64,000 nt of DNA from contig CM126215.1 of assembly GCA_052327205.1 (NCBI GenBank), positions 77,438,001 to 77,502,000 on the forward strand, read 5' to 3'. Each line of letters starts with the position of its first letter. Within the stretch, counting starts at the first letter, position 1. Of the stretch, positions 7,801 to 56,831 are shown in pieces. Under the pieces are notes generated by a model. It did not search any database. It saw only the letters and a list, made by a program, of their open reading frames with translations, and was not told the origin of the DNA. Source of the stretch: Somniosus microcephalus (Eukaryota). The translations under genes and the position numbers were made by a program.

Positions 7801-8429
7801 AAAATGGCAGGGTGTTAGGAACCTGTGCAGGGAGACAGAGGAAAGGGAAGCAAGGATAGGAGCAAAAGACAGGAAGGAGAAAAGCAAAAGTGGAAGGCAG
7901 AGAAATCAAGGGTGTAAATCAAACAAGGTCACAGTACATAATAATTCTAAAAGGACTAAAAGTGTTAAAAAAACAAGCCTGAAGGCTTTGTGTCTTAATG
8001 TGAGGAGCATTCGTAATAAGGTGGATGAATTAGCTGCGCAAATAGATGTAAACGGATATGATATAATTGGGATTACAGAGACATGGCTCCAGGGCAACCA
8101 AGGCTGGGAATTCAACATCTAGGGGTATTCAATATTCAGGAAGGACAGGCAAAAAGGAAAAGGAGGTGGGGTAGCATTTCTGGTTAAAGAGGAGATTAAC
8201 ACAATAGTAAGGAAGGATATTAGCTCTGATGATGAGGAATCTGTATGGGTAGAGCTGAGAAATACCAAGGGGCAGAAAACGTTAGTGGGAGTTGTATACA
8301 GACCCACAAACAGTAATGCTGAGGTTGGGGATGGCATTAAATGGGAAATTAGAGACACGTGCAATAAAGGCACAGCAGTTACCATGGTGACTTAATCTAC
8401 ATATAGATTGGACTAACCAAATTAGTAAC

Positions 8430-8605
8430 TGTAGTGTCCGTGTGTTGATAGAGACACTGAAGACAGGAGTTGGTTCATAGGTGTTTACTAAGCAAAGTCT
8501 GGAGGGGTACTAACGGATATAACACAATATACAGGCTTATATAGCCCGAGTGGCCATTACCGGCATTACAGCACACATGGGGCTCTTAAAGGCACATACA
8601 CTACA
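8430..8605 (-). repeat. 3' LTR of Gypsy element 1
   Basis: Direct repeat of 13104-13279; no mismatch seen by eye. Confidence 0.97.
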
Positions 8606-8698
8606 ATTCCTCCCCTTTTAGCTAACCAGTACATCATATTTTAAGTAATTATTAATCACATATTATAAGAAAAATAATATACACATTGCTGTAGTTAA

Positions 8699-11600
8699 TT
8701 AATTATAAGTCAGTCTCTCTGGAGGCTTCCTGACTCGGTCCGGATAACGCCTCAGTGGTGTAGTCGTTTCTGGTGGTGTAGTAGGTTCTTTTGGCAAGGC
8801 TGATTCGGCTTGAATGCCAGTGTCGGGTTCATCGGGTTCCAGTATCACTGGATCGGAGGTAGATATGGGTATCTCTACTTCATCGTTAGGCGTATAGAGT
8901 TGTGGTGTAGGTTGTCCCTTTTCGGATGACTCTATGATTTGGTCAGCATGGCGCCTTATTATGCTTTCTCCGATGTCCACGGTATACATCAGTGGTCCTA
9001 GTCGTGTGCAGATAGTTCCAGGCTGCCATTTCTCGGTACGGTAGTCCCGGGCCAAAACTTGTTGACCTATCTGGAAGGTTCTAGTTGGCCTTTCATTCAT
9101 GCCTTGAAACTGCCGGTTCTCCACGTCCCTTCTGATGTTGGGCTTGACCAAATCCAGCCGGCATCTTAGGTTTCTATTGAAGAACATCATGGCGGGAGTT
9201 TGGTTGGTAACCATATGTGTTGCATTCCTGTATGCGAACAAGAAGTTATCCACCTTGTGCTGAAGTTTTATGTCTTCATTACCCATGGCCTTTATGGCCT
9301 TCTTGAAGGTCTGGACAAACCTTTCAGCCAATCCATTGGTGGCGGGATGGTATGGGGCGGACGTGTAGTGCTTAACCCCATTGTTTTTTAAGAACTTCTT
9401 GAATTCTTCGGACACAAATTGCGGTCCATTATCAGAACAGATCTGTTCCGGCAGCCCATTCCTGGCAAATATGGTTCTTAATACTGTGATGGTTTTTTCC
9501 GTGGTGGTGGAGGACATCTTTATTACCTCCGGCCACTTGGAGTGTGCATGAACCGCGATTAAGAACATTGAGTCCATAAATGGACCAGCAAAGTCGATGT
9601 GTACCCTTTGCCAGGGAGATGAGGGCCACTCCCATGGATGTAGAGGGGCTTGTGGTGGAGCGTTTTGGACCTTCTGGCATCCTAGGCAGCTCTTGGTCAT
9701 TTCTTCGATGTCTCCATCGATACCTGGCCACCATACAAACGCCCTGGCTAGGTTCTTCATTTTCACTCCACCCAGATGCCCCTCGTGAAGCTCCTTTAGC
9801 ACTTTATCCTGGAGTTTGGGTGGAATCACCACTCTGGATCCACACATCAAGGTTCCTCGGCACACTGACAGCTGTTCTCTTCTTTGCGAGAATGCTGGCA
9901 ACAGTGGTTCGCCATGTGCTGGCCATCCCTTCACTGTTAAATCGTAGACCCGTGAGAGAGTCGGGTCATTTCTTGTCTCCCTTTCAATGGCAGAATTTAT
10001 TACCGGTAGACATTCCACTATGGTAGAGTGGAACATCTCCACTGGGTCTACTGTAGGTGCCTCTTCTACCGTTGGCAACGGTAGGCGCGATAAACCATCA
10101 GCATTCCCATGCTGTTTTGATCCTTTGTATTCTATGTTGTATTGGTGTGCCCCTAGAAAAAGGGACCACCTCTGTAGCCTTTGCGCTGTCATAATGGGAA
10201 CACCCTTTTTAGGGTTGAATATGGAGATGAGGGGTTGATGGTCAGTCAACAAGGTAAATTTTTGTCCGTGTAGGTAATGGTTGAATTTCTTCACTCCCCA
10301 TACCAGGCTGAGTGCTTCCCTGTCGATTTGGGCATAGTTACGCTCAGCTCAGTTCAATGAGCATGACGCAAAAGCTATCGGCCGTTCCGAGCCATCAGGG
10401 AATTTATGCGATAATACTGCTCCTATGCCGTAAGGGGATGCATCGCACGCCAGTCTGATTGGCAGTGATGGGTTGTAATGAGCCAAAACTTCTTCGGATG
10501 TGATTAAGTCTTTGCATTTATGGAAGGCACGCTTACAGTCTTCATTCCATTTCCAAATTACTCCTGTTTGTAGCAGTTCATTAAGAGGGTGTAGAAGAGT
10601 TGATAAGTTCGGTAAAAATTTATGATAGTAATTTATTAATCCCAGGAACGACCTTAATTGTGAAACATTTTCAGGTGCTGGGGCTTTTATGACCGCTTCA
10701 ATTTTTTCAGGTGACTTATGCAACCCTTCCTTATTTATTATGTGGCCACAATATGATATTTGATTTCGGAAAAATTCGCACTTGGGGCGATTTGTTCGTA
10801 GGCCCCGTTCTCTCAGCCTAGTGAGCACCTGCTCCAAATTGGCACGGTGCTCGCTGTCATTTTCTCCTGTTACAAGGATGTCGTCCAGGTAGCATTGAGT
10901 CCCCGGAATCCCTTGGCGGACTTGCTCCATAGCTCTTTGCCAGATAGCTGGAGCGGATGCTACTCCGAAAACTAGCCGATTGTACTGGTACAGACCTTTG
11001 TGTGTATTTATCGTGAGATATTTTTTAGAGGCCTCTTCAACCTCCATCTGTAGATATGCCTGTGCCAAGTCAATTTTGGTGAAACATTTCCCTCCGGATA
11101 GTGAGGCGAAAATATCTTCTATCCTCGGAAGAGGATACTGTACCGTGTGAAGGACCGGGTTTACCGTCACCTTGAAGTCTCCACAGATGCGAATTTTTCT
11201 CTGTTCTTCAGATTTATCATTATTCAATGCTTTCTTCATGACTGGAACGATGGGTGTTGCCCACTCGCTCCAATCTATTTTGGATAATACGCCTGCATTT
11301 TCCAAATTCTCCAGCTCTGCCTCGACTGCTGGACGAATTGCGTATGGCACTGGTCTTGCTTTAAAAAACTTGGGAATTGCTGCATCTTCCACTTTTATTG
11401 AGGCGGTGATGCCTTTCAAGGTTCCTAGTTTCTCTTGAAACACTTCTTTGGCGTTGGCCAAGATGTCTTTTAATCGTTCAGGTATGATGTCATCATCGTT
11501 TTTTTCTTACTGGTCACCGTCAGTGCCTGAATGGAGTGCCAGTCTAAACGTATTTTCCTGATCCATTCACGTCCTAACAGCGGTGGGCCACCATCTTGTA

Positions 11601-12686
11601 GAATGTATAAATACAACTTTTGTATTTCCTTGCCGTTGTATACAACAGGCACCTTTATTTTTCCTTTGGGGTATACTTTCTGCCCCGTATATGTTTTTAA
11701 GATAATGGATGTGTCTTTTAAAGGTATATGCGGAAATAGCCTCTCATAATCCCGTCGATTTATTACGGCCAGAGCTGATCCTGTATCTAGCTCCATTTTA
11801 ACTGGGGACTCTGCTATCGTGAGGGTAACCCAAATGGTCTGGTAATCATCTTTGGCAAGTACTTTATGTAATTTGAGACAGCTTAGTCTCTTGTTTTTGG
11901 AGTCGCTATCGCTCTTCTGGTCTTTGGAGCTACTTTCCGTCATCATTTGTACCTTTCTGTACTTTTCTTCATTGATTTTTTTTTCCTGTCTGTGGATTTA
12001 TTTTGTCCACATCGGCATACCCGTGCAATGTGTCCAATCTTTCCGCATTGCCTGCATGCTTTGTCCTTGAACCAGCAGTCCCTCTGGTTATGGGTGGATC
12101 TGCCGCAGCGATAACATCTTTCGAAACCCTGTGTCATTTCATGGGTGCCGAAGTCCTGTGTCTTCTGTTGTATCTCTGCAGCTCCTCTTGCTGCTGCTTC
12201 GTATGATACAGCCATACTGAAAGCCTTGTCCAGTGTTAAATCTTTTTCAGAAAGCAGCCTTTTTTGTGTTCCTTCACTTAAGAGACCGCAGATGAATTTG
12301 TCTCGAAGATAATCTGCTAGTCCTGCCCCGAATTGGCAGTGTTTTGATAGCTTTCTTAATTCGGTGAGGTAATCAGCGTTACTTTCATTCTTGTGTTGAT
12401 TTCTCTTGAAGAATTTGAATCATTCTGCTATCAGCAGCGGTGTTGGGTTTAAGTGCTCCTGCAGGGTATCAACAATTTTTTAAAAATCCTTGTCCTTTGG
12501 TTTGGCTGGAGTGATTAAATTTCGTAACAGCCCGTATGCCTTTGCGCCCATTAAATTCAGCAGTACTGAAGCTTTTTTTTCATCTTCTATTCCATTTGCA
12601 GTGCAATATACCTCTACTCATTCCACATATGTGGTCCAATCCTCTATTTCACTATCAAAAGCATCAATATTGCCAGACTTAGGCAT
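8699..12686 (-). pseudogene. gag-pol polyprotein (two CCHC knuckles, protease, RT, RNase H, integrase) with 3 stops and 2 frameshifts
   Basis: CYRCG..H..C and CRQCG..GH..C; LDTGSA; YLDD; CDASPYG; ADGLSR; HHCC; HIDFAG, SDNG, GLAER. Confidence 0.95.
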
Positions 12687-13103
12687 CTTAGAAAAGATAT
12701 GGCGCTTCCCGCGCTTTTCCGCCGCTGCTGCCGATGACAACGCTGTTTCCCGCGGTTTCTGTTCTTTTTTTATTTATTTATTTACAGTTGGAGACTCGTT
12801 CCCGCCGGACTTTCTCTCTAGGTCTGAACGCCGACCTGCTTGCAGCGCCGGCCGTCTCCCGAGTGCTCCCTCCCCGTTTGTTATTGCTTGCCTCTGATTT
12901 CGCTGCTTGTCCCAGCTGTAGAGCCAGCCGCTGGAGCCCCACCCTGACGCCCAGGAAGGATTAGCGCAGTACCTGCCACCAGCTTGGCCAGCTGGTGAAA
13001 CCACAGCTTCTTTCACTTCCTTGAGTCTTCTGGACGCCCGAGGAATCGATGTCCTTGAGGTGCTGCCGAATTGCAGGTAAGTCCGTTTCCACTTCGTCGC
13101 CAC

Positions 13104-13279
13104 TGTAGTGTCCGTGTGTTGATAGAGACACTGAAGACAGGAGTTGGTTCATAGGTGTTTACTAAGCAAAGTCTGGAGGGGTACTAACGGATATAACACA
13201 ATATACAGGCTTATATAGCCCGAGTGGCCATTACCGGCATTACAGCACACATGGGGCTCTTAAAGGCACATACACTACA
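13104..13279 (-). repeat. 5' LTR of Gypsy element 1
   Basis: Direct repeat of 8430-8605, adjacent to the PBS. Confidence 0.97.
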
Positions 13280-34194: not shown

Positions 34195-34504
34195 ATTGTG
34201 AATAGCTGGGGCCCAAGCACTGATCGCTGCGGTACCACACTAGTCACCACCTGCCACCCCAAAAAAGACCCATTTATTCCTACTCTCTGTTTCCTGTCTG
34301 TTAACCAATTTTGAATCCATGCCAGTATATTACCCCCAATCCCATGTGCTTTAATTTTGCACATTAACCTCTTATGTGGGACTTTATCAAAGGCCTTCTG
34401 AAAATCCAAATACACCACATCCACTGGTTCTCCCTCATCTATTCTACCAGTTACATCCTCAAAAAACTTCAGTAGGTTTGTCAAACACGATTTCCCTTTC
34501 ATAA

Positions 34505-37275
34505 CATACAGGGGTATTCAGTATTTAGGAAGGATCGACAAAAAAGAAAGGGAGGAGGGGTAGCATTGCTAGTAAAAGAGGGGATAAATGCAATTGAAAG
34601 GAAGGATATTAACTCAGTTAATACAGAATCTATATGGGTGGAGCTAAGAAATAGCGAGGGGCGAAAAACATTAATAGGAGTGGTATATAGGCCTCCAAAT
34701 AGTAAAATAGAGGTTAGGGAGGGCATCACGAGGGAAATTAGAGAAGCGTGCAATAAGAGCACAGCTGTCATCATAGGTGACTTTAACTTACATATAGATT
34801 GGACTAGCCTAATCAGTAAAAATAATGAGGAGGAGGAATTCCTTGAGTGTTTGAGGGATGGTTATCTGGATCAATATGTCGAGGAACCAACTCGGGAACA
34901 GGCTATATTGGACTGGGTACTGTGCAATGAGAAGGGACTAATCAGTAATCTTGTTGTACGGGGACCCTTGGGTCAGAGCGATCATAACATGATCGATTTC
35001 TCACTCGAAATGGAGAGCGAAGAAATTGACTCAGAGACTAAGGTCCTGAATTTAAACATGGGGAATTATGATGCCATGAGACGGGAACTGAGTAGGTCTG
35101 ATTGGACAACGTTCCTGGGAGGACTGGAGGTAGATAAACAATGGCAAACATTTAAAGATAGAATGACAAAATTGCAAAAATTGTTTATACCAATCTGGCA
35201 TAAAAGGAAATCTAAAAAGGTGACTCAACCGTGGATAACAGGGGAAATTAGAGACAGCATAAAATCCAAAGATAGGGCGTATAAAATAGCCAAAAAAAGC
35301 GCCAGAGCGGAAGATTGGGAACAGTTTAAGATAGAGCAAAGGAGGGCAAAGGGCATAATCAAGAGGGGCAAAATAGCTTACGAAAACAAGCTGGCGGAAA
35401 ATATAAAAACTAACTCCAAAAGCTTTTATAAGTATATCAAAAGGAAAAGACTGGTGAAAACCAAAGTTGGTCCATTGCAGTCAGATACGGGGGAATATAT
35501 AATGGGAAATAAGGAAATGGCAGATCAACTAAATGCATACTTTGGGTCAGTCTTTACGAAGGAAGACACAAAAAACCTCCCTGGGATATCGGGAAAAATA
35601 GGGACATTGGCAAAGGAGGAACTGACGCAAATCAATATCTCTAAGGATATGGTGTTAAGGAAGCTAAAGGGATTGAAGGTGGACAAATCCCCAGGGCCTG
35701 ATAACATGCATCCTAGGGTACTGAAGGAGGTGGCCCTAGAGATAGCGGATGCACTAAGGATGATTTTTCAGAATTCATTAGACTCGGGAACAGTGCCGAT
35801 GGATTGGAGGGTAGCTAACGTTACCCCACTATTCAAAAAGGGGGGTAGGGAAAAAGCAGGTAATTACAGACCTGTAAGCCTTACATCAGTTGTGGGCAAA
35901 ATGCTGGAGTCCATCATTAAGGATGAAATAGCGGAGCACTTAGCAAATGGGGACAGGATAGGACAGAGTCAACATGGATTTACAAAGGGTAAATCGTGCT
36001 TGACTAATCTATTGGAATTTTTTGAGGGAGTAACTGGTAGAATAGATGGGGGAGAGCCAGTAGATGTGGTGTACCTGGACTTCCAAAAGGCCTTCGATAA
36101 GGTCCCACATAAAAGATTAGCATGGAAAATTGAGGCTCATGGGATAAAGGGGAAAGTTTTGGCGTGGATAGGGAACTGGCTGTCAGATAGAAAACAGAGA
36201 GTTGGAATAAACGGCTCATTTTCTGAATGGCAGGCAGTAACAAGTGGGGTACCACAGGGATCTGTCCTGGGCCCCCAGCTGTTCACAATTTACATTAATG
36301 ACCTGGATCAGGGAGTCGGATGCAGCATTTCCAAATTTGCAGACGACACTAAACTAGGAGGGGGGGTGGGCTCAGAGGAAGAGACCAGGAAGCTCCAGAG
36401 CGATTTGGACAGACTGGGCGATTGGGCGGATAAATGGCAGATGCACTATAATGTGGACAAGTGCGAAGTTATCCACCTTGGGTGCAGGAACGGGAGGGCA
36501 AATTATTATTTAAATGGCAATAGATTGGGAGAGGGGGAAGTACAGAGAGACCTGGGTGTTCTTGCACACCAGTCACTGAAGGCGAGCATGCAGGTGCAAC
36601 AGGCGGTCAAGAAGGCAAACGGTATGCTGGCCTTCATAGCAAAAGGGTTAGAATACAGGAACAGGGATACCTTGCTGCAGCTGTACAGGGCACTGGTGAG
36701 ACCACACCTCGAGTACTGTGTACAGTTTTGGTCGCCTCATCTGAGGAAGGATGTTCTTGCCATGGAGGGGGTGCAGCGGCGATTCACCAGGCTGATACCA
36801 GGAATGGCGGGAATGACCTATGAGGAGAGACTATGTAGTTTAGGGATGTACACACTGGAGTTTAGAAGATTGAGAGGGGACCTCATAGAAGTGTATAAAA
36901 TTCTGACAGGTCTAGACAGACTGGATGCAGAAGGAATGTTTCCCTTGGCGGGTGAGAACAGAACTAGAGGACATAATTTAAGGATAAGGGCTAAACCATT
37001 TAGGACAGAGATGAGGGGGAATTTCTTCACTCAGAGAGTGGTGAACCTGTGGAACTCATTGCCACAGAGGGCAGTGTATGCCAGCTCATTAAATATATTT
37101 AAGAGGGAATTAGATATATTTCTACGGGCAAAAGGGGTTAAGGGTTACGGAGAGAAGGCGGGGACGGGATACTGAATTAAAGGATCAGCCATGATCTCAT
37201 TAAATGGCGGAGCAGGCACGAAGGGCCGAATGGCCTACTCCTGCTCCTATCTTCTATGTATCTATGTATCTATGT
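34505..37275 (+). mobile_element. young 5'-truncated CR1 LINE
   Basis: ATAA duplicated at 34501-34504 and 37276-37279; (TCTATGTA)n tail. Confidence 0.95.
34506..37175 (+). CDS. CR1 ORF2 (partial endonuclease + complete RT), uninterrupted but lacking its 5' start
   Basis: Frame open from the insertion boundary to TGA; GGGVA, YRPP, GDFN, SDHN, QGSVLGP, FADD. Confidence 0.9.
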   Translation: MQGYSVFRKDRQKRKGGGVALLVKEGINAIERKDINSVNTESIWVELRNSEGRKTLIGVVYRPPNSKIEVREGITREIREACNKSTAVIIGDFNLHIDWTSLISKNNEEEEFLECLRDGYLDQYVEEPTREQAILDWVLCNEKGLISNLVVRGPLGQSDHNMIDFSLEMESEEIDSETKVLNLNMGNYDAMRRELSRSDWTTFLGGLEVDKQWQTFKDRMTKLQKLFIPIWHKRKSKKVTQPWITGEIRDSIKSKDRAYKIAKKSARAEDWEQFKIEQRRAKGIIKRGKIAYENKLAENIKTNSKSFYKYIKRKRLVKTKVGPLQSDTGEYIMGNKEMADQLNAYFGSVFTKEDTKNLPGISGKIGTLAKEELTQINISKDMVLRKLKGLKVDKSPGPDNMHPRVLKEVALEIADALRMIFQNSLDSGTVPMDWRVANVTPLFKKGGREKAGNYRPVSLTSVVGKMLESIIKDEIAEHLANGDRIGQSQHGFTKGKSCLTNLLEFFEGVTGRIDGGEPVDVVYLDFQKAFDKVPHKRLAWKIEAHGIKGKVLAWIGNWLSDRKQRVGINGSFSEWQAVTSGVPQGSVLGPQLFTIYINDLDQGVGCSISKFADDTKLGGGVGSEEETRKLQSDLDRLGDWADKWQMHYNVDKCEVIHLGCRNGRANYYLNGNRLGEGEVQRDLGVLAHQSLKASMQVQQAVKKANGMLAFIAKGLEYRNRDTLLQLYRALVRPHLEYCVQFWSPHLRKDVLAMEGVQRRFTRLIPGMAGMTYEERLCSLGMYTLEFRRLRGDLIEVYKILTGLDRLDAEGMFPLAGENRTRGHNLRIRAKPFRTEMRGNFFTQRVVNLWNSLPQRAVYASSLNIFKRELDIFLRAKGVKGYGEKAGTGY

Positions 37276-41475: not shown

Positions 41476-42305
41476 TTCCCCCTAGTTCTCCCCGCCTATC
41501 TAGCTCAAATAACCTGTCCACTTAAAAAGAATGTAATCCCTTCATTATTTTAAACATCATAATCGTATCTTCCCCATACAAATCTCCTGTTCCCTAAGCC
41601 TATCCTGATACTTAAGGTCCCATAAACTTGGACCTTTTCCAGAGGTTCAATATCTCCCCTCCCCCACCAGGTGAGTGGACCAAAAATGAACACAGTATCT
41701 AGATGTGGCTGAACCAAAGCCTTGTACCAGGTAAGGATTGTATTTACAGTTTTATATTTAATTGTCCTAGCTATATATCCAACAGTCTATTCGCTTTTGC
41801 AACAACATGGATTACATAGGATATACGGCACCGAAACAGGCCATTCGGCCCAACCAGTACATGCTGGCGTTTATGCTCCACTCGAGCCTCCTCCCGTCTT
41901 TCCTCACCTAACTCTATCAGCGTAACCCTCTATTCCCGTTTCCCTCATATGCTTGTCTAGTCTCCCCTTAAATGCATCTATAATATTCACTTCAACCACT
42001 CCCTGTGGTAGCAAGTTCCACATTCTCACCACTCTTTGGGTAAAGAAGTTTCTTCTGAATTCCCTATTGGATTTCTTGGTGACTATCTTATATTGATGGC
42101 CTCTAGTTATGCTCTTCCCCACGAGTGGAAAGATTCTCTCTGTATCCACTCTATCAAAATCTTTTATAATTTTAAAGACCTCTATTAGGTCACCCCTCAG
42201 TCTTCTTTTTTCAAGAGAAAAGAGACCCAGACTGTTCATCCTTTCCTGATATTTATACCCTCACATTTCTGGTATCATCCTTGTAAATCTCCTCTACACC
42301 CTCTC

Positions 42306-42560
42306 TGTAAAGTCTGTGGGTTGTACAGTTAATAACGACACAGACTTCAGGAATAACAAACAAACAGGTCTTTACTATTCGAAGGTCAGGGCGAATCTGC
42401 CCAAGGAATCATGCCACAACACTTATATACCGGTGTGGTCACCGTCGGTATTACAGTATACAGAAGCCAAACAAGTAGTGCCACACCTAAAGTAGTTCTC
42501 TTAAAGGTGAACGGTTACATACAATAGTTCTCTTAAAGGTAGACGGGTACATACACTACA
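42306..42560 (-). repeat. 3' LTR of element 2
   Basis: Direct repeat of 47323-47577; contains an internal ~32-bp tandem duplication. Confidence 0.97.
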
Positions 42561-42943
42561 ATCCTCCCTTTTTAGCTTATTACATACAGAGTCCCCATTA
42601 AACATAACATATCTTCAACTTCATATAAAACAATTTACAGACATAGTCTCAGTGGGAAACAGTTCACAGGTTCAGTCTCTGCAGGAACAGTTCACAGATT
42701 CAGTCTCTGATCTTGACTCGGTCCGAACAACATCTCTTTGGTGTAGGTGGTTCACATTGCTAGCGTGACTCCTCCATATCCTTTTCTTGACGTAACAGCT
42801 TGAACTTTCGTCCTGCTGAACCAGCAGTGCTGACTTTTACAACAACTGGGTTGCCTTGATATTTTCCTACTTCCCAACTGATTTAACTCCTTTCGTAGGG
42901 TCCACGCATGATCTGGTAGAAGTGATAATATTTGCGATAGTTA

Positions 42944-45900
42944 TCATCCTCTGCTTCTTCTTTTTCTTTTCTGCTTTTTGGAGACTCTCGGGGCTCCCTT
43001 ATCAGCTGCCAGCTGTAGCGCCACCAACTCTCTATGTTCCTTCGACTTTAAGTGCTTCATCCTGATTTCGGCACTTTGGGAGTTTTCATCACAAACTGGG
43101 CAGACCACATCCTCGTAATGTTCAGTGTCACTCAACAGGTCATGGTAATATTCGGGTTCGTCCTGAGTTAGGCCAGCGAGAGGGCCTTCTACTTCCTCCT
43201 TACCCATCTGAACGTTAGCTGACTGTGGTTCCTTCCCTAGACATCTTTCTTGAAAAGACTTCTTCATGCATTCATCTTCATTCCGCTCTTCCTGGGTTTC
43301 CTGCAAATCCTTCACTAATGACCTCATTTGTGATTTCAATACTTCCCCTTCCCTCGGGGATTGATTGATCGGGCTATTCAATCCTTCTACTGGAGCAGCT
43401 GTTTCAACATTCTGTTGTTCACATAGACGCGATTCAGCGTACTTTTGGCATCCCAGTAAAGTCTGTTTTGCAACCTCAGCTATTTCCCAAACTTTTGAGA
43501 GCTCTGAACTCCTTCCCGTTGAAGATTGAAGCTCGTGTTCAGATTGTTCCCATTGCAGAGTCTTTTCCCTCAGCATATGAAGGAGTTGGCTGACTGTTAA
43601 CTCTTCCACGGGAACACTGTGGATCAGAGTCTTCTCCATTTCATCCACCTTTTCCTCCAATGCTTCCACCCTCTGTTCCTCTTGTACTTTGGCTTTCAGC
43701 GCTCGGAAAAGTTGCGCCCTGATACTCTCTAGCTCATGTTCAGGGACCATTCTTACAGTCTCTGTGTTTCTTACAGTTTCCTTTTCTTCCACTGAAAGGA
43801 TTCCCAGTTGAATCTGTTCTTCAAGTTGTTGAACCTCGGACATTGCCGCCTCATATTTGTCTTGGGTTTCCTTCAATATTTTTATGAGTTCTTGGACATC
43901 TTGTCTTTCATGTTCTGCCATGTCTTTCACCTCTAATTTCTCATCTATGGATGGAACTTCTACCGATGAGTCTGTCTTGGCCTTGAGCTCATCAAGAATT
44001 TCCTGCAGCCTTTGGACTTCTTGCTCATGTTCAACCTTTAGTTGTTCATATGCTTCTACTGAAACTAGCTTTTCGGAGGTTGCCGAGTTAACCCCCTCCA
44101 GAATTGTAGCCTGGGCCTGTTCATACTGTTCTTTCAACTTCTCACACTCTGCTTGTAAGGAGTCGTAGAGAAGAACTGGAATAACATCCTGGCTTCCTGA
44201 AGATTCCTCTTCATTTGCTTCTTTCACAATTTCCTGTTGGAGTTCAGCCAAGGCTGCTATGCTATCTGCCTCTCGAAGTCTCACTGCCATCAAATCTTCT
44301 TTATTCTTGCAGTCTATCTCAGCCATTTTCCGATTACTTTCATTTAACTGAGTGAGTAGTCCCTTATTCTGGGCTGAGAGATATTGCACCTTCTCATGTA
44401 GACCATAGCACTCCTTCTCTGCTCGACATAGCTGGTTACTGCTGATTTGGTTCTGTGTTTCAAGTTCCAACATCCTTTGCTTAGCTTCTTTCAGTTTCGC
44501 CCCTATAAGCTCCTCTTGCAACATGACCACATTATTCACATCAGGTAAAGAAGCGTTTCTCTTTTCCATGTCCAAGATTTTTTCCTGCATATCTTTAAGT
44601 GCACACTGCGATTCAGCTTCTCTTAACCTTGCTTGCACTAGCTCCGTCTCCAATTGCAGAACAAAATCCTCAGTGTAGCGTGGTTTGCCTTTATGCTGTA
44701 TCTCTAGATCATGCAAATATTCTAACTCCTGAACATCATAAGGGAGATGTGATCGGTAATTGGTCACGATGGCTCTATGGTCGCTCTTTGCTTGAGCTAG
44801 CTGCCTCTGCTGTCTTTCCAGGTTCTCCCATTCGGTGTCCCAGAACTTTTCCATTGTTTTCATCTCTTGTACGAGACGGTAACCCAACTGTTCTAATTGT
44901 TGTCGTACTTTGAAATAAGTTTGAGTCCGAGTTCGGTGTTCTTCCGTCGTGGATAAGTCCTTAATTTGAACAGGCTCAGAATTCTCTGTCAAACTGGAGT
45001 TCTGCTCTGAAGCTTTATTCTTCTCGGTGGCATAAGCCTTTATGCATGTCTTCGTTTTCTCCACCATAGTCGGCAAGTTCATTTTAGCCTTGTCTTCCAT
45101 ATTTGAGTTGGTCTTATCGTCATCCGTTTCAGAATCTGAGCTGATAGCTTGCACCGAGTCCTCACTCATTATGGCTTTTAGATAGTGCCATTCCATGTCT
45201 ATTTTCTTGATCCACTCTCGTCCTAGAAGTGGTGGTCCTCCCTCAGATAATACGTACAAGTTCATTCTTGGGTGTTCTTTACCCCTATCTCTCACCTTGA
45301 CTCTTATCTTCCCCATGGGGTATACCTTATGCCCTGTGTATGTCTGCAATACGAACTTGGTATTTCTTAAGGGTATGTGAGAGAATAGCCGGTGGTAGTC
45401 TCTTCGATTTATGACTGATAGAGCTGATCCAGTGTCCAACTCCATTCTTACTTGGACTCCAGCTATTTTTAGTATGACCCAGATAGTTTGTAGGTCAGCT
45501 TCCTTACTCACATTGTGAATTCTCAGACTACCCAGCTCCTGGCTGTTTGGGTCTGAGTCTGAATTCTGTTCGTCTGAACTCTTCTCAGCCACCTTGTGTA
45601 CCTTGTTGTACTTTTCTTGTGGTGGCTTCCTTTGGCTGTTGGTCTTCTTCCCTGACTGGCACACCTTAGCGATGTGACCCAGTTTGCCACATTTCCTACA
45701 TTCTTGGTTCTTAAACCAGCATTGATTCTGGTCGTGTGTTGTCTTCCCACAACGATAGCATTTTGTTGTACTTGAGGTAATTTGGTCCACCCCAAGTGCC
45801 GCCGCCTTTAGCTGCATTTCCGCCGTTCCTTTCGCTGCGGCTTCGTGCGATGCGGCTATAAGGACAGCCCTGTCAAGTATGAGGTCGTTCTCTTCGAGTA

Positions 45901-46270
45901 GTCGCTTTTGTGTCCCTTCCTTGGACAATCCGCATACGAACTTGTCTCGCAGTGCCTCTGTCAGATTCCCTCCGAACTGGCAGCATTTCGCTAGCCTACG
46001 CAGTTCGACCAAATATTCCGCGTTGCTTTCGTCTTTCCGTTGCGTTCTTGCATAGAATTTGAATCGTTCAGCCAACATCAATGGTGTGGGGTTCAAGTGG
46101 TCCTTCAGAACAGCCACAATCCCTTCAAAAGTCTGATCCGCCGGTTTAGCTGGTGCTAGTAGATGCTTCAAGAGCCCGTATGTCTTTGCGCCCATCGAGT
46201 TTAGCAATGTTATCGCTTTGTCGTCTTCCTCTATTTTGTTGGCTTCACAATAGATCTCGATGCGTTCCAC
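42944..46270 (-). CDS. chimeric polyprotein: Gag + aspartic protease + EVI5-like + ANKRD24/RAI14-like + optineurin-like + DNAJC21-like segments
   Basis: 1108 open codons; two CCHC knuckles (aa 171-204), LDTGSA (aa 278-283), then host-like coiled coils and a C2H2 finger. Likely true ATG at 46330 is followed by TGA at codon 4. Confidence 0.85.
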   Translation of the reverse strand: MERIEIYCEANKIEEDDKAITLLNSMGAKTYGLLKHLLAPAKPADQTFEGIVAVLKDHLNPTPLMLAERFKFYARTQRKDESNAEYLVELRRLAKCCQFGGNLTEALRDKFVCGLSKEGTQKRLLEENDLILDRAVLIAASHEAAAKGTAEMQLKAAALGVDQITSSTTKCYRCGKTTHDQNQCWFKNQECRKCGKLGHIAKVCQSGKKTNSQRKPPQEKYNKVHKVAEKSSDEQNSDSDPNSQELGSLRIHNVSKEADLQTIWVILKIAGVQVRMELDTGSALSVINRRDYHRLFSHIPLRNTKFVLQTYTGHKVYPMGKIRVKVRDRGKEHPRMNLYVLSEGGPPLLGREWIKKIDMEWHYLKAIMSEDSVQAISSDSETDDDKTNSNMEDKAKMNLPTMVEKTKTCIKAYATEKNKASEQNSSLTENSEPVQIKDLSTTEEHRTRTQTYFKVRQQLEQLGYRLVQEMKTMEKFWDTEWENLERQQRQLAQAKSDHRAIVTNYRSHLPYDVQELEYLHDLEIQHKGKPRYTEDFVLQLETELVQARLREAESQCALKDMQEKILDMEKRNASLPDVNNVVMLQEELIGAKLKEAKQRMLELETQNQISSNQLCRAEKECYGLHEKVQYLSAQNKGLLTQLNESNRKMAEIDCKNKEDLMAVRLREADSIAALAELQQEIVKEANEEESSGSQDVIPVLLYDSLQAECEKLKEQYEQAQATILEGVNSATSEKLVSVEAYEQLKVEHEQEVQRLQEILDELKAKTDSSVEVPSIDEKLEVKDMAEHERQDVQELIKILKETQDKYEAAMSEVQQLEEQIQLGILSVEEKETVRNTETVRMVPEHELESIRAQLFRALKAKVQEEQRVEALEEKVDEMEKTLIHSVPVEELTVSQLLHMLREKTLQWEQSEHELQSSTGRSSELSKVWEIAEVAKQTLLGCQKYAESRLCEQQNVETAAPVEGLNSPINQSPREGEVLKSQMRSLVKDLQETQEERNEDECMKKSFQERCLGKEPQSANVQMGKEEVEGPLAGLTQDEPEYYHDLLSDTEHYEDVVCPVCDENSQSAEIRMKHLKSKEHRELVALQLAADKGAPRVSKKQKRKRRSRG

Positions 46271-46584
46271 GTACGTGGCCCAGTCTTCTATCTCAGAATT
46301 AAAATCGTTAATATTCCCTCACTTAGGCATCTTCCTTTCCTTGGGAGCAGCACAAGTATTTCTTTAAATTCTTATTTATTATTTATTTATTTCTAAGATG
46401 GCGGTTTTTCCCGCGAAAATGGCGGTTTCCCGCTCTTTCCTTCTCTCCCCGCCCCTTCAATGGCGGTCTCCCGCGTCTGTCGTCTTCTCCGCCTAATGGT
46501 GGCTTCCCGCGTTTCTTCCCTGGTGGGAGGGATACGCTTTCCCCACAGCGGACAGGTTCAGCCGCTGGGCTGGCTTCCGCACAG

Positions 46585-46810
46585 CTCCCCTTACTCGGCT
46601 CTGTCTTTCTCTCCCGCTCGCACGGCTCTACCGGCGCTGGGTACCCTGTTCACGGAGAACAGTTCAGCCGCTGGACTGGCTCTCGCGCAGCCTCTCTCCC
46701 CTTGCTCGGCTCTGTCTCTCTCTCCCCCACGTTCGGCTCTACCGGCGCTGGGTACCCCGTTGGTGGAGAACAGTTCAGCCGCTGGACTGGCTCTCGCGCA
46801 GCCTCCTTTA
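46585..46810. repeat. GC-rich tandem duplication, period 111 bp, in the leader of element 2
   Basis: GGAGAACAGTTCAGCCGCTGGACTGGCTCTCGCGCAGCCTC at 46654 and 46765. Confidence 0.9.
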
Positions 46811-47322
46811 GTCGGCTCTGCCTCTCCCACACGCCCGGCTCCCGTTCGCCTCCCAGCCCTCACGCAGTCCGGTGCTTCCCTCCCCGGCTGCGGCTGAGTT
46901 TCTCTCTTCCCGCGCCTGCTCCCGGTCTCAGCGCTTCGTGGCTTCGGTCGCTGCCCGGCTTTTCCCGCCGATCGCGGTCCGGCTATCTCACGACGCCGTC
47001 GGACCCGCCTTCCTGACCAGCTCTGCTCCCCCTCGACCGTGGTCGAGTGAAAACCCCTATCCTCCGGATTTCGTTACACCTTCCCCTACTCACAGTCTCC
47101 GCGGCCGCCTTGTTTCCTGCTGATCGGCTCACTCCGCACCGTGGTAGAAGGGTAGTCAGTGCCTGTTGCTGCTGGAAGCTTTTGTTGCTAAAGTCTTCCT
47201 CCTTTCTATTGCTGCAGCCTCGTGTTTTCTTCCAGCAGAACGACGAGGGCGGTTGCCTCTCTTCGACGCTCTTTAGTTGCTTTGGTAGTCTTGCCGCAGG
47301 GTACGATCGGACTTGTCGCCAC

Positions 47323-47577
47323 TGTAAAGTCTGTGGGTTGTACAGTTAATAACGACACAGACTTCAGGAATAACAAACAAACAGGTCTTTACTATTCGAA
47401 GGTCAGGGCGAATTTGCCCAAGGAATCATGCCACAACACTTATATACCGGTGTGGTCACCGTCGGTATTACAGTATACAGAAGCCAAACAAGTAGTGCCA
47501 CACCTAAAGTAGTTCTCTTAAAGGTGAACGGTTACATACAATAGTTCTCTTAAAGGTAGACGGGTACATACACTACA
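47323..47577 (-). repeat. 5' LTR of element 2
   Basis: Direct repeat of 42306-42560, adjacent to the PBS. Confidence 0.97.
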
Positions 47578-48194
47578 CTCTCCAGTCCCTCTATATCCTT
47601 TTTATAATATGGTGTCCAGAACTGCACGCAGTACTCTAAGTGTGGTCTAACCAAGGTTCGATACAGGTTTAGCATAACTTCCCTACTTTTCAATTCTATA
47701 CCTCTAGAAATAAACCCTAGTGCTTGGTTTGCTTTATTTATGGCCTTGCTAACTTGTGTTGCAACTTTTAATGATTTGTGTATTTGTACTCCTAGATCCC
47801 TTTGTTCCTCTACCCCATCCAGACTCGCACCCTCCAAGTGATAAGTGACCTCCCTATTCTTCCTACCAAAATGTAATACCTCACATTTATTTGTGTTGAA
47901 CTTCATTTGCCAATTATTTGCCCATTCCGCAAGTTTATTAATGTCCTCCTGTAATTTCTTGCAGTCCTCCTCAGTATTGATTATCCCCCCCAATTTGGTG
48001 TCATCTGAAAATTTAGAAATTGTGTTTTTGATTCCAAAGACTAAATCGTTAATGTAAATTGTGAACAGCAGTGGTCCCAGCACTGATCCTGGTGGAACAC
48101 CACTACCCACCTTCTGCCACTGTGAATAGCTACCCTTTACTCCTACTCTCTGCTTTCTGTCCTGAAGCCAGCCAGCAATCCATTCTGCTAGTAC

Positions 48195-50315: not shown

Positions 50316-51213
50316 GTCTGCTACTTGTCCCCTGACCCCACATTCTCTGACCTTATTCATCAGTCTATTATGGGATAGCTTATCGAAGGCCTTTTGAAAA
50401 TCCAGGTAAATTACATCTACTGTATTACCGTTGCCATTACCATTACAATTACTGCATTCGGTGTTTTATAAACTACAACCCTCCAGTCCTTCTACTGCTC
50501 AGCAGCCTCAGCAGGTCAATATGGATGGTATCTACATGCTTGGAATTACCCCAGCCCAAATGCATTGCTTGTATTACATTGAAAGACATCTGCCACTCAT
50601 GGGCCCATTTCCCCATTGCATCTAGGTCTGTCTGCAGACTATTTATTTTGGCCACAATTTTAACTCTTGCATATATTTTCATGTCATCAGCAAACTTCTG
50701 GACCATTCCTTTGAGGCCTTCATCCAGATTATTAATAAAGATAGTGGAGAGCAACTCACCTAACGTAGATCTTGGTAACTAGCAACCGACTCCCACACAG
50801 AGCTGCTACAATTAAAATCCACCTCTGTCTATTCGAATGCACCCAATTCTTTATCCAACCTAAGATCTGCCCGCCAATTGTAAATGTCGCAACCTTACTT
50901 AGCCTTTCGTGCGGTACTTTATCAAAGGCTTTTTGAAAATCGAGATAGACAATATGTACCAGGCTTCCATCATCCAACAACTTTGTAACCTGTTCCAAAA
51001 AATTCAATCCTGTTGGTGAGACAGGACCTCCTTTTCTAGAAGCCGTGCTGTGATTTCCTAATAGCCTCTGCTCTTTCTAAATGATCATGCAATACATCCC
51101 TAATAACACCTTCCAGCAACTTGCCTATAACTGAAGTTAAACTAATGAGCCTACAATTTTCTAGTTCTTAGTTGCTGCCTTTTTTAAATATTGGCACCAC
51201 ATGGACCTCACTC

Positions 51214-53946
51214 TGTATTGATTTCTTTGTGGGTTCAATGACGAGACATTTATGAAAGAGAATGTCTTTTTAATCTAAAGTCTGTTCAACTCTTTATACA
51301 GCATTTACAGGAGACATCATGCCAGTGATGCATCTAGAACGAAACTGAAACTAAACCAAACTGCTTGTCTCTGTCACATGACCTCTGCTGGTCAGGCATA
51401 AGTAATCAATACCTGCAACTATGCTGGTAAGGCATGATAATCAAACAGGCAAATAACATCACTATTTGCTGATATCATTACATCTCCCTTTCTTAAAACA
51501 AAAGTATTTTACTTTTAACTAACAACATGTTTTCTTTGTATTAATCTGCATTTTAACTGTAACACTTAATGAACTTACATTAACATTATCATTATCAAGG
51601 TTTTTTAACCTTGCTTTGTGTGTTCACATGAAATATGTAAATGCACTAGAACTTGAAGAAAGAATAAGATAACATTACTTCCTTCTATAACAATAGTCCT
51701 TAAATTTGCTCAATGAGTCTCTCAGGAGGCTTCACGCGTCTTGAGGATTTTCTGATTGATTGTCCTTGAATCTGAGTTGTTGCCTCAGATGATGTGTTCT
51801 CAGCTGTGTGATCAGGTTGTTCAACAGTATCAGTCTCTTGACCTGCTGTGGCTGGTCCCATGAGAAGATCTCGGCGATTTCTTCTCAGAACAGCACCCTC
51901 ATCTGTCTGAATGGTGTATGATCTTGGTTGAACTTCACTCAGGACAGTTCCCTTCTGAGTCCATGTGTTTGTTTTGTCTTTGAACCTTACTTGGTCACCA
52001 GTGTGGAGTTCAGGTAGGTTTTGTGTTCCTCTGTCATAGTAGTACTTTTGCTTTTCTTTCTGTTGCTCTTTGAACTTCCTCACTTTCTCCCCCTCTTTTG
52101 TTTTCAGGAGGTTCTCCGGGATGGGTAGGTTTGACCTTAGCATACGTCCCATAAGGAGTTGGGCTGGTGACATACCACACTCGAGCGGCGTTGTGCGGTA
52201 TACAAGCATGCTCTGGTAGAAGTCAGTTCCACTGTCTTTTGCCTTGCACATCAGTCTTTTCACTGTGTTTGCGGGCTCTCCTGGGTCAACAGCTCTGGAC
52301 AACGTGTCTGCTGTATACATCAGCTTACCCGGTGTGTACGCAACATTCAGTTCATCATAGACTGTCTCTCCTTCGCTTTCCACAACGAGGACTCTCTTTA
52401 CCAGGTTCAGTCTCTCACAGGCTTTTAAACCTAGTATGGCTTGCACATCCTTTGGCACCACGATTAATGCTAGCGTGTGCTCTCTGTCCTTGTGTGTTAC
52501 TTTGACAATGCATCTTCCTTTCACTGGTATATCAGTACCTGTGTATCCTGTCACTTTCACTTTTATTCCATGTATCTTTGGTCTGGGTCTAATTTTCTTA
52601 AAATCAGTCTCTGATATCACATTAACTTGTGCTCCAGTATCCAATTTAAATGGAATATGTATGTCATTCACTTTTAGTGTCAACATCCAGTCTCTTTCTT
52701 CTTTTTTGTTTTCAGACACAACATCTACATAGAACTCCTCTATCTCACTTTCATCTACTGTATGGACCTTGCTTTGTTGCGCTTGGTTCTTGCAGCAACG
52801 GGCATAATGGTTGTTTTTGTTGCAACTATTGCATGTTTTACCATATGCTGGACACTTTCTTGGTGTATGCTGTGTACCGCATCGACTACATGACTTTCGA
52901 TTGTCCCTTTCATGTTTGTTCGCTGGCCACGCCTCTTTTTTCACATTGGCGCTCTTTTTGTTAACCGGTTTGTGTCCGTTCATTCTCACTGCATCCACGT
53001 TGCAGCTATTATCACTGAACAGCTCCTTTGCCTGCAACTTCACAGTCTCTGTAGCCCTACACAGTGCTATGGCTTTTCCCAGGTCTAGATCTTGCTCTCT
53101 TAGCAGTCTTTCCCTTAGACCATTATCTGGAATACCACACACCAGTCTGTCTTTTATCAGCGAGTCTGTCAGTCCCCCAAATTCACACGATTTGCTTCGG
53201 TTTCTCAGTTCAGTCACATACTGATCAATAGTCTCACCCGTTTTCTGTACACATGTGAAAAATCTGTGCCTCTCAAACGTCACGTTACGTTTAGGTATGC
53301 AGTAGGCCTCAAACTGTTCCATTATTTTATCTAGCTTCATTTTGTCTCCATCAGCAGCGAATGTGAAGTTATTATACACCTCCAGCGCTTCATCACCCAC
53401 GACATGTAAGAACAGTGACGATTTCCTTTTATTACTTTTCTCGTCAGCTCCGATTGCTGATAAATACAACCCCACACGTTGTTTGAATCTCCTCCAATTT
53501 TCAGCCACATTACCTGTCAACTGAAGCTTCGCCGGTGGGAGTAAACCTTCCATTTTTCACTTCGTTAGCTATTCTCTAATGGTAAGTAACAATGTTCTCT
53601 TTTGGCTTGCTAATTTGTGGAGAGCTGATTTAACTTCAGATTTTTTCTCTTCATCTCTTTCAGCCACTTCTGACACCATGTATTGATTTCTTTGTGGGTT
53701 CAATGACGAGACATTTATGAAAGAGAATGTCTTTTAATCTAAAGCTTGTTCAACTCTTTATACAGCATTTACAGGAGACATCATGCTAGTGATGCATCTA
53801 GAACAAAACTGAAACTAAACCAAACTGCTTGTCTCTGTCACATGACCTCTGCTGGTCAGCCATAAGTAATCAATACCTGCAACTATGCTGGTAAGGCATG
53901 ATAATCAAACAGGCAAATAACATCACTATTTGCTGATATCATTACA
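51214..53946 (-). mobile_element. internally deleted Gypsy LTR retrotransposon (element 3)
   Basis: LTRs 51214-51482 and 53679-53946 (about 5 substitutions + 1 indel by eye), TSD CACTC, PBS TGGTGTCAGAAGTGG (tRNA-Leu-like), PPT AAGAAAGGGAGA. Confidence 0.96.
51700..53553 (-). CDS. Gag-protease fused in frame to the RNase H tail and integrase C-terminus (617 aa)
   Basis: CSRCG..H..CPA..CNSC..NHY..C; LDTGAQ; YTPGK..ADTLSR; YRTTP...SPAQLLMGR; RRNRR; no YxDD. Confidence 0.9.
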   Translation of the reverse strand: MEGLLPPAKLQLTGNVAENWRRFKQRVGLYLSAIGADEKSNKRKSSLFLHVVGDEALEVYNNFTFAADGDKMKLDKIMEQFEAYCIPKRNVTFERHRFFTCVQKTGETIDQYVTELRNRSKSCEFGGLTDSLIKDRLVCGIPDNGLRERLLREQDLDLGKAIALCRATETVKLQAKELFSDNSCNVDAVRMNGHKPVNKKSANVKKEAWPANKHERDNRKSCSRCGTQHTPRKCPAYGKTCNSCNKNNHYARCCKNQAQQSKVHTVDESEIEEFYVDVVSENKKEERDWMLTLKVNDIHIPFKLDTGAQVNVISETDFKKIRPRPKIHGIKVKVTGYTGTDIPVKGRCIVKVTHKDREHTLALIVVPKDVQAILGLKACERLNLVKRVLVVESEGETVYDELNVAYTPGKLMYTADTLSRAVDPGEPANTVKRLMCKAKDSGTDFYQSMLVYRTTPLECGMSPAQLLMGRMLRSNLPIPENLLKTKEGEKVRKFKEQQKEKQKYYYDRGTQNLPELHTGDQVRFKDKTNTWTQKGTVLSEVQPRSYTIQTDEGAVLRRNRRDLLMGPATAGQETDTVEQPDHTAENTSSEATTQIQGQSIRKSSRRVKPPERLIEQI

Positions 53947-56405: not shown

Positions 56406-56659
56406 TTTTACTCTTTTAGCCAATCTGATAACAGATTTTATTGTCCTTAACTGAATCCGATGCCCATTGTTATTCCCTTGAGAGTTATTTGTCTTGGACC
56501 TGGTAAAATATTTCTGCTTTAGTTTAATTTGTCTTCACCAGTTAGCCATTTGGTTTTGTTTTACCATTGACCCTTCTTTTGGCCTGGTATATGCATGACT
56601 TCTTTTTGCATAAAAATTGTTTTAAAACTAATCAAATTTTCAGTGTTCTTTGCATCTAA

Positions 56660-56831
56660 CTGTATGATATGGTAGAGGGAGTCACATATAATCTGTATGA
56701 TATGGTACAGGGAGTCACATATAATCTGTATGATATGGTACAGGGAGTCACATATAATCTGTATGATATGGTAGAGGGAGTCACATATAATCTGTATGAT
56801 ATGGTGCAGGGAGTCACATATAATCTGTATG
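56660..56831. repeat. 33-bp minisatellite (about 5 copies) inside a Harbinger transposase remnant
   Basis: Unit CTGTATGATATGGTA(G/C)AGGGAGTCACATATAAT; minus translation FMNRKGFHSISIQIICDS then (..IIQIICDSLYH)n. Confidence 0.92.

Follow-up and report, generated by a model that had tools for sequence, protein, structure and literature searches.

A pol-less LTR element of Somniosus microcephalus whose Gag-protease-cargo frame closes with a zinc finger and basic tail derived from DNAJC21

A long open frame in the window, the 64,000-nucleotide stretch of Somniosus microcephalus DNA analysed here, ends in a C2H2 zinc finger and a basic tail that trace to the host gene DNAJC21. The explanation that we favour, on balance rather than firmly, is that the finger and tail terminate the Gag-protease-cargo protein of an LTR element without pol genes, which likely acquired its host pieces by template switching, likely borrows reverse transcriptase (RT) and integrase, and likely carries its basic end in place of the integrase C-terminus. 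The translation reported for the finger and tail in the first-pass annotation was exact, lying at 43138-42944 on the reverse strand at the end of a 1,124-residue frame.

The host of the finger and tail is a Ty3/Mag-like LTR element of 5,272 bp inserted within a CR1-like LINE; the Mag label is our assumption from the two-knuckle Gag and the single frame. The element lies on the reverse strand. Its 255-bp LTRs (5' LTR, TG...CA, 47323..47577; 3' LTR, 42306..42560) differ by a single mismatch, and the 5-bp target-site duplication (TSD) is at 47578..47582 upstream and 42301..42305 downstream. A primer-binding-site-like motif, common to the subfamilies, is located 3' of the 5' LTR (47310..47322) and the polypurine tract (PPT) at 42562..42573. 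The chimeric open frame, P0002 (42944..46318, 1,124 aa stop-to-stop), begins with Gag (45659..46318), which has two CCHC knuckles (45760-45719 and 45700-45659), followed by an aspartic protease (45194..45472) with DTG at 45439-45425. The Pfam matches of the window knuckles and protease fell below the cut-off, whereas the protease of sister copies exceeded the curated cut-off. In the window copy, an ATG at 46330 is followed three codons later by a stop (46321-46319), so that the frame is broken at its fourth codon. The GC-rich long leader holds a 111-bp tandem repeat of 2.3 copies (46556-46805), and leader length differs between element copies. The 3' untranslated remnant (42574..42943) is homologous to sequence that, in sister copies, codes for STK10 and the integrase end. 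A Pfam scan of P0002 found no RT, RNase H or integrase. The Ty3/Gypsy traits present are thus the TG...CA LTRs, the 5-bp TSD, the primer-binding site, the PPT and the Gag knuckles with protease, and the RT-RNase H-integrase order is missing. Since two relatives, L217 and L218, do have the pol genes, the copy in the window counts as a non-autonomous derivative.

Other mobile elements share the window. A second LTR element (51209-53946) has terminal repeats 97-98% alike and a 618-aa frame with Gag, protease and an apparent integrase C-terminal remnant, and no RT or RNase H. In a third (8428-13279), with a 178-nt repeat that is 100% identical, the RT, RNase H and integrase frames are split by stops. 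A 356-aa frame at 444-1514 encodes a transposase domain of the Harbinger type (DDE_Tnp_4, E 9e-35), and a LINE endonuclease-RT frame of 899 aa, which we take to be CR1-like, is found at 34476-37175, with many related fragments across the window. A 33-bp minisatellite of 5.5 copies with 95% matches lies at 56653-56831.

Downstream of the protease, about 730 aa of the frame are captured sequence, and shark proteins were the best protein matches of the frame. Pol has been swapped in frame for pieces of STK10, ankycorbin, EVI5, an optineurin-like protein and DNAJC21. The first, an STK10/SLK-derived linker and coiled coil (44795..45145, start approximate), aligns to sister copies that exceed the Pfam PKK cut-off. 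It is followed by the penultimate exon of ankycorbin (RAI14/ANKRD24-like, host gene on contig C13) fused to the beginning of the large upstream exon (44712..44794, scrambled junction 44729/44728), a circularly permuted EVI5 coiled-coil piece (44225..44713, scrambled junction 44696/44695), and the ankycorbin large-exon coiled coil (43600..44225), 96% identical to host DNA. The optineurin-like coiled coil (43187..43600) was assigned by contiguity as presumably derived from optineurin; the upstream part of this cargo in sister copy L224 matched optineurin (E 0.002), and a protein atlas search with the window part returned generic coiled coils only.

The DNAJC21-derived segment (42962..43186) comprises a jaz/U1-type C2H2 finger at 43102-43034, with the ligand spacing C-x2-C-x12-H-x5-H, and a basic tract at 42988-42962. 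Taken by itself, the window finger is too diverged for database searches to reveal its source: it gave no matches in a word-index protein search, four matches, all unnamed, among 1.84 billion representative proteins, scores all below 0.9 in a protein atlas search and only the ZFa finger in the PDB. The first-pass annotation had likened the finger to DNAJC21, quoting a DNAJC21 string that agrees with the primate protein (P0221), and had proposed a zf-C2H2_jaz profile and a protein search as checks. Both gave divided answers. Against PF12171 the window finger scored 17.9 bits (E 0.0036), below the cut-off of 22.6, while sister fingers reached 31-35 bits; and the window finger alone named no DNAJC21, while it aligned pairwise with shark DNAJC21 (P0129; 17/38 identical, E 7e-9) and the finger of sister copy L036 had 495 matches, the best of which (6e-19) was DNAJC21, most of the 120 listed being named DNAJC21 and the rest unnamed or hypothetical. 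Intermediate fingers bridge the sister forms and the window form. Because sister copies pass the Pfam cut-off, keep the acidic spacer and match named DNAJC21, the link is firm, and the proposed origin stands.

The reading of the tail as a DNAJC21 tract stripped of its acidic spacer was correct in part. The RVSKKQ tract agrees at 7/8 positions, the spacer is still present in sister fingers of the same genome, and comparison with sister copy L223 shows it to have been cut out cleanly, and in frame, by a deletion of 39 nt. The final basic residues and the stop (42944..42961) have another source, an out-of-frame reading of STK10-derived acidic sequence. The placement of the tail where integrase normally ends held up, the PPT/LTR motif being common to the pol-bearing relatives. 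In the IRMKH segment, an insertion plus a deletion and a series of point changes fit indistinguishably.

The Pfam scan also found no J domain or zuotin-homology domain in P0002, which therefore does not qualify as a DNAJC21 orthologue. Two exons of the host DNAJC21 gene were located on contig C1, and the later exons, including the finger exon, were not found in the next 118 kb, a stretch with two runs of N. A search for the host gene with PF21884 led instead to a locus that we take to be DNAJC2-like, and the matches of a whole-protein DNAJC21 search of the genome were swamped by element copies. A catshark protein of 278 aa (P0130, six member sequences) has the DNAJC21 C-terminal half only and could be a truncated gene model or another capture. 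A human DNAJC21 splice variant, c.983+1, is described in one report (PMC6710477); it corresponds to residue 328, within the finger (316-338, primate numbering), and offers indirect support, from the human variant only, for the loss of an intron in the capture. Compared with the first C2H2 finger of DNAJC21/Jjj1, as described in two papers (PMC6710477, PMC10119586), the element finger has the same ligand spacing and flanking residues but occurs without the J or zuotin-homology domain, has lost the core Phe and basic residues in the window subfamily, and has its spacer deleted.

The family is large. A 28-base PPT/LTR motif had 10,638 exact occurrences (control, 0), and the first 70 motif places on C1, a sample chosen by the position of the motif and not by the finger, comprised 45 with the finger, 15 with integrase and 10 with neither. 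A finger search, in which 150 of 15,640 candidates were scored, gave copies that were, all but one, 97-100% identical, about 54 of the 150 (hand count) lying in frames of at least 1,123 aa. Two full LTRs and a TSD of their own (5 bp) were present in 17 of 20 fetched copies, which measured 4.8-5.6 kb. The two integrase-bearing copies scanned (L217 and L218) had RT together with RNase H and integrase, in one of them sharing a frame with the knuckle and protease, and such relatives are likely the helper. They came from the motif sample; searching the genome with the tail returned non-autonomous copies, and an integrase family search was non-specific. In a tree, the helper LTRs, which are 85-94% identical to the window LTR, are interspersed among the chimeric ones, and the helper Gag-protease forms its own clade, a pattern that would be expected if helper and parasite were co-packaged and recombining. 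Subfamilies about 20% apart differ in cargo: some have Ig domains, some a myosin-tail-like piece and some nothing but STK10. Sister frames terminate in the integrase C-terminus itself, and therefore Pol was replaced internally. Six sampled non-autonomous copies have no finger and keep a basic tail. One sister subfamily (L221:2438-5551) has at least three I-set Ig domains, presumably obscurin-like, in place of the finger, and another copy (L222:1899-4665) has another short C2H2-like motif immediately following the protease, as well as an additional integrase-linker block.

The element family is transcribed. RNA-seq reads, which are family-level, covered all 30 bins of the frame in two runs of one study. 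In run X23, 14,853 of 16,654,260 records mapped to the element and in run X24, 12,093 of 14,396,404, the runs having been picked by the species label of the best-matching DNA run (0.61 of words), with none of the matching runs listed as RNA; a close relative is a possible source of the reads. The finger bin had depths of 395.5 and 25.8 by first-mate strand in X23, consistent with sense transcription in a stranded library, and was unskewed in X24. In-frame deletions were seen among the transcripts.

Purifying selection acts on Gag and protease, and the cargo is in near-neutral drift, yet open. In comparisons of the window copy with six sister copies, dN/dS was 0.08-0.18 for Gag, 0.10-0.38 for protease and approximately 0.5-1.3 for the cargo, mostly indistinguishable from neutral (the ankycorbin row of L223, misaligned across a deletion, and the optineurin rows of L116 and L117, which have different cargo, were left out). 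A separate comparison gave similar values. The cargo common to the window copy and L122, chosen like other copies for long frames, had 0 stops against about 9-14 expected. The DNAJC21 segment as a whole, at 0.6-1.3, was likewise indistinguishable from neutral.

The zinc ligands behaved differently from their neighbours, as the first-pass annotation had proposed. In the motif-picked sample they were unchanged in 44/44 in-frame fingers (22 distinct DNA and 14 distinct protein sequences, the frameshifted finger of L198 being dropped), while 17/19 other core positions varied. The core underwent 32 parsimony amino acid changes, none of them at a ligand; two simple tests gave p 0.001-0.004, approximate values, as the changes were counted on a short, recombining tree. 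The youngest copies are 97-98% identical, and ligand conservation there is uninformative. In an AlphaFold model guided by a 21-row, DNAJC21-rich alignment, the finger was predicted to form a hairpin and helix (pLDDT 80-89) with a disordered tail, so that the predicted beta-beta-alpha fold accompanies the jaz ligand spacing. Retention of RNA binding by the finger is doubtful because the net charge of the core, which three host proteins have at +4 to +6, fell to 0 in the window copy (-4 in L223, +3 in L122), the core Phe was lost (Ser in 42/44 fingers), and some subfamilies have no finger.

The basic end recurs as well. At least seven K/R were counted in the last 12 residues of 38/42 finger frames, 0/12 integrase frames and 6/16 others. 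It arose once when the reading frame of the integrase end was moved by an insertion into a run of arginines, and again when a separate shift made the acidic STK10 sequence after the DNAJC21 lysine tract basic and ended it in a stop.

The main rival to the favoured explanation is that the cargo, finger included, is only filler that moves the ribosome near the 3' LTR, avoiding long-3'-UTR decay and keeping the packaging length, the ligand and tail patterns being by-products. The cargo dN/dS near 1 with its absent stops, the interchangeability of Ig domains, myosin-tail-like pieces and STK10 alone, and the in-frame deletions among transcripts all agree with it. We nevertheless consider it unlikely, since it does not account for the ligand invariance, for polybasic ends reached by two separate frameshifts, or for the finding that all identified captures are in sense orientation and in the donor's own frame. 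Against a selected finger and tail, in turn, stand the amplification of finger-less subfamilies, the loss of the Phe and positive charge, the dN/dS of the DNAJC21 segment, and RNA evidence that comes from a single study, at family level, with one run lacking strand skew.

The scrambled junctions suggested how the cargo may have been acquired. The ankycorbin piece consists of the end of one exon, the entire 66-nt penultimate exon and, from its first base on, the large exon upstream, a junction of downstream donor to upstream acceptor that is base-exact against host DNA on C13; introns are absent at both the forward and the scrambled junction, and both points are real host splice sites. The EVI5 piece, inserted about 17-22 nt into the ankycorbin large exon (copies without EVI5 were also found), opens with the residues that end at a downstream boundary, passes to an upstream boundary and continues almost back to its start, with an internal deletion; the boundaries on both sides were isoform-variable in a tally of 107 EVI5 proteins. 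The STK10 order is reversed, the coiled coil preceding the end of the kinase domain. The evidence is thus host DNA for ankycorbin, isoform boundaries for EVI5 and order only for STK10. Non-colinear exon junctions are described by Dong et al. as a signature of circular-RNA-derived copies (PMC4897178). Given the base-exact ankycorbin junction of back-splice type, and the scrambling of EVI5 and STK10 as well, circular RNAs are a likely source of these captures. A 12-nt direct repeat flanks the DNAJC21 insert in L115, and short overlaps were seen at the ankycorbin ends. A family copy also lies, in opposite orientation, inside an intron of the donor ankycorbin gene (L232:9271 to L233:4362).

It is improbable that the junctions arose instead from duplicated host exons or from jumps between stretches of microhomology on a linear mRNA. 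CAG/G microhomology is present at the scrambled junctions, being common to both sides of the ankycorbin one, with about 10 CAGG sites within approximately 1,746 nt, and Dong et al. acknowledge that such junctions can have other origins (PMC4897178). A linear jump would not be expected to place both ends exactly on splice sites, as seen for ankycorbin in DNA and for EVI5 at isoform boundaries, or to let the EVI5 start and end adjoin the same point, like one turn of a circle; host exon duplication is countered by the normal order of the ankycorbin exons on C13.

Less probable still is a cargo of counter-defence or host manipulation, in which the optineurin, EVI5, STK10 and DNAJC21 pieces act as decoys for autophagy, trafficking and ribosome-assembly partners. 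The donors are cytoplasmic scaffolds, the transcript level is high (X23), and an optineurin segment is kept in sister copies, followed there by what we take to be an LC3-binding motif. However, most cargo comparisons are without a purifying signal, donors turn over fast, the optineurin part next to the presumed LC3 motif was lost in the window family, and the J domain of DNAJC21 was left uncaptured. Domestication as a host gene, to which the long open frame and transcription might point, is already refuted for the window locus by the dispersal of thousands of copies, whose LTRs are nearly identical and whose TSDs differ, and by the broken fourth codon.

The favoured explanation would then operate as follows. 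An LTR-driven RNA would be translated into a single Gag-protease-cargo polyprotein; the element would very probably make its own Gag and protease, which purifying selection maintains, and be mobilised in trans by the helper, whose Pol would also enter the particles. Template switching by RT onto co-packaged host RNAs, circles included, would add cargo, following the model of Tan et al. (PMC5131818); in all probability at least two, probably three, of the donors were circular RNAs formed by back-splicing that entered the particle by co-packaging. Amplification would be restricted to in-frame captures. The coiled-coil cargo is, somewhat more probably than otherwise, a stuffer whose openness outweighs the identity of its residues. 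With a little less than even confidence, we suggest that the polybasic end may aid the polyprotein in holding nucleic acid or entering the nucleus, and that the finger may be a selected, accessory folded zinc module whose host RNA-binding surface has eroded. A bolder version can be offered only tentatively: that the element takes up host circular RNAs, one after another, as in-frame modules, that its selected finger and basic tail stand in for the integrase C-terminus in capturing RNA or entering the nucleus, and that this pol-less parasite outnumbers its helper approximately 3:1.

No account of the shark family was found in the literature searched, most subscription papers and the repeat databases being outside its scope. 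Its existence bears on several questions, 1) the mechanism of circular-RNA retrotransposition was called unknown by Dong et al. (PMC4897178), and junctions from several genes together with a helper in the same genome make template-switch capture directly testable, 2) in the family, LTR-mediated exon shuffling extends to thousands of copies that are transcribed and have their Gag fusion open, 3) it is a rare case of a captured host domain with a signal of selection while serving a selfish element, and 4) copies will be mis-annotated as paralogues of EVI5, ankycorbin, STK10 or DNAJC21 and inflate their expression and circular-RNA calls.

Several known systems resemble the shark element. TR-GAG and other Gag-only plant LTR elements likewise keep Gag (and protease), lack RT and integrase and need a helper; to our knowledge they carry no host cargo, as opposed to the roughly 730 captured residues here. 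In the Gag-onc fusions of defective, acutely transforming retroviruses, which are also helper-dependent, host coding sequence is fused in frame to Gag and replaces pol; unlike these, the shark element is a germline retrotransposon without env, and its cargo is mostly drifting rather than selected for signalling. Maize Bs1 is an LTR element encoding a chimeric protein with pieces of host genes, three in its case, but is a plant element of 1-5 copies per genome, for which the accessible part of the account mentions no circular-RNA junction (PMC5131818).

Two more systems are comparable. The tens of circRNA-derived pseudogenes described by Dong et al. in 2016, including mouse circRFWD2 copies flanked by LTR sequence, have genomic non-colinear exon junctions like those seen here, whereas the shark junctions come from two or three genes, in frame, in an amplifying element with a visible helper (PMC4897178). 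In LTR-mediated retroposition in animals, as set out by Tan et al. 2016 (PMC5131818), internal ORFs are likewise replaced by partial host mRNA, with chimeras of several genes, transcription in the sense direction and further rounds as non-autonomous elements, and the ankycorbin capture is just such an intron-less host mRNA piece in place of an internal ORF. The switch points there show microsimilarity, to which the repeat around the L115 insert and the ankycorbin overlaps may correspond. The cases reported there are few-copy, 14 of 21 older non-fly cases having loss-of-function mutations, while the shark family has thousands of copies in subfamilies about 20% apart, one open Gag-protease-cargo frame and serial nested captures. 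The family thus represents the known LTR-mediated gene capture, with junctions of circular-RNA type, and differs in its scale, its retention of an open frame and its serial nesting.
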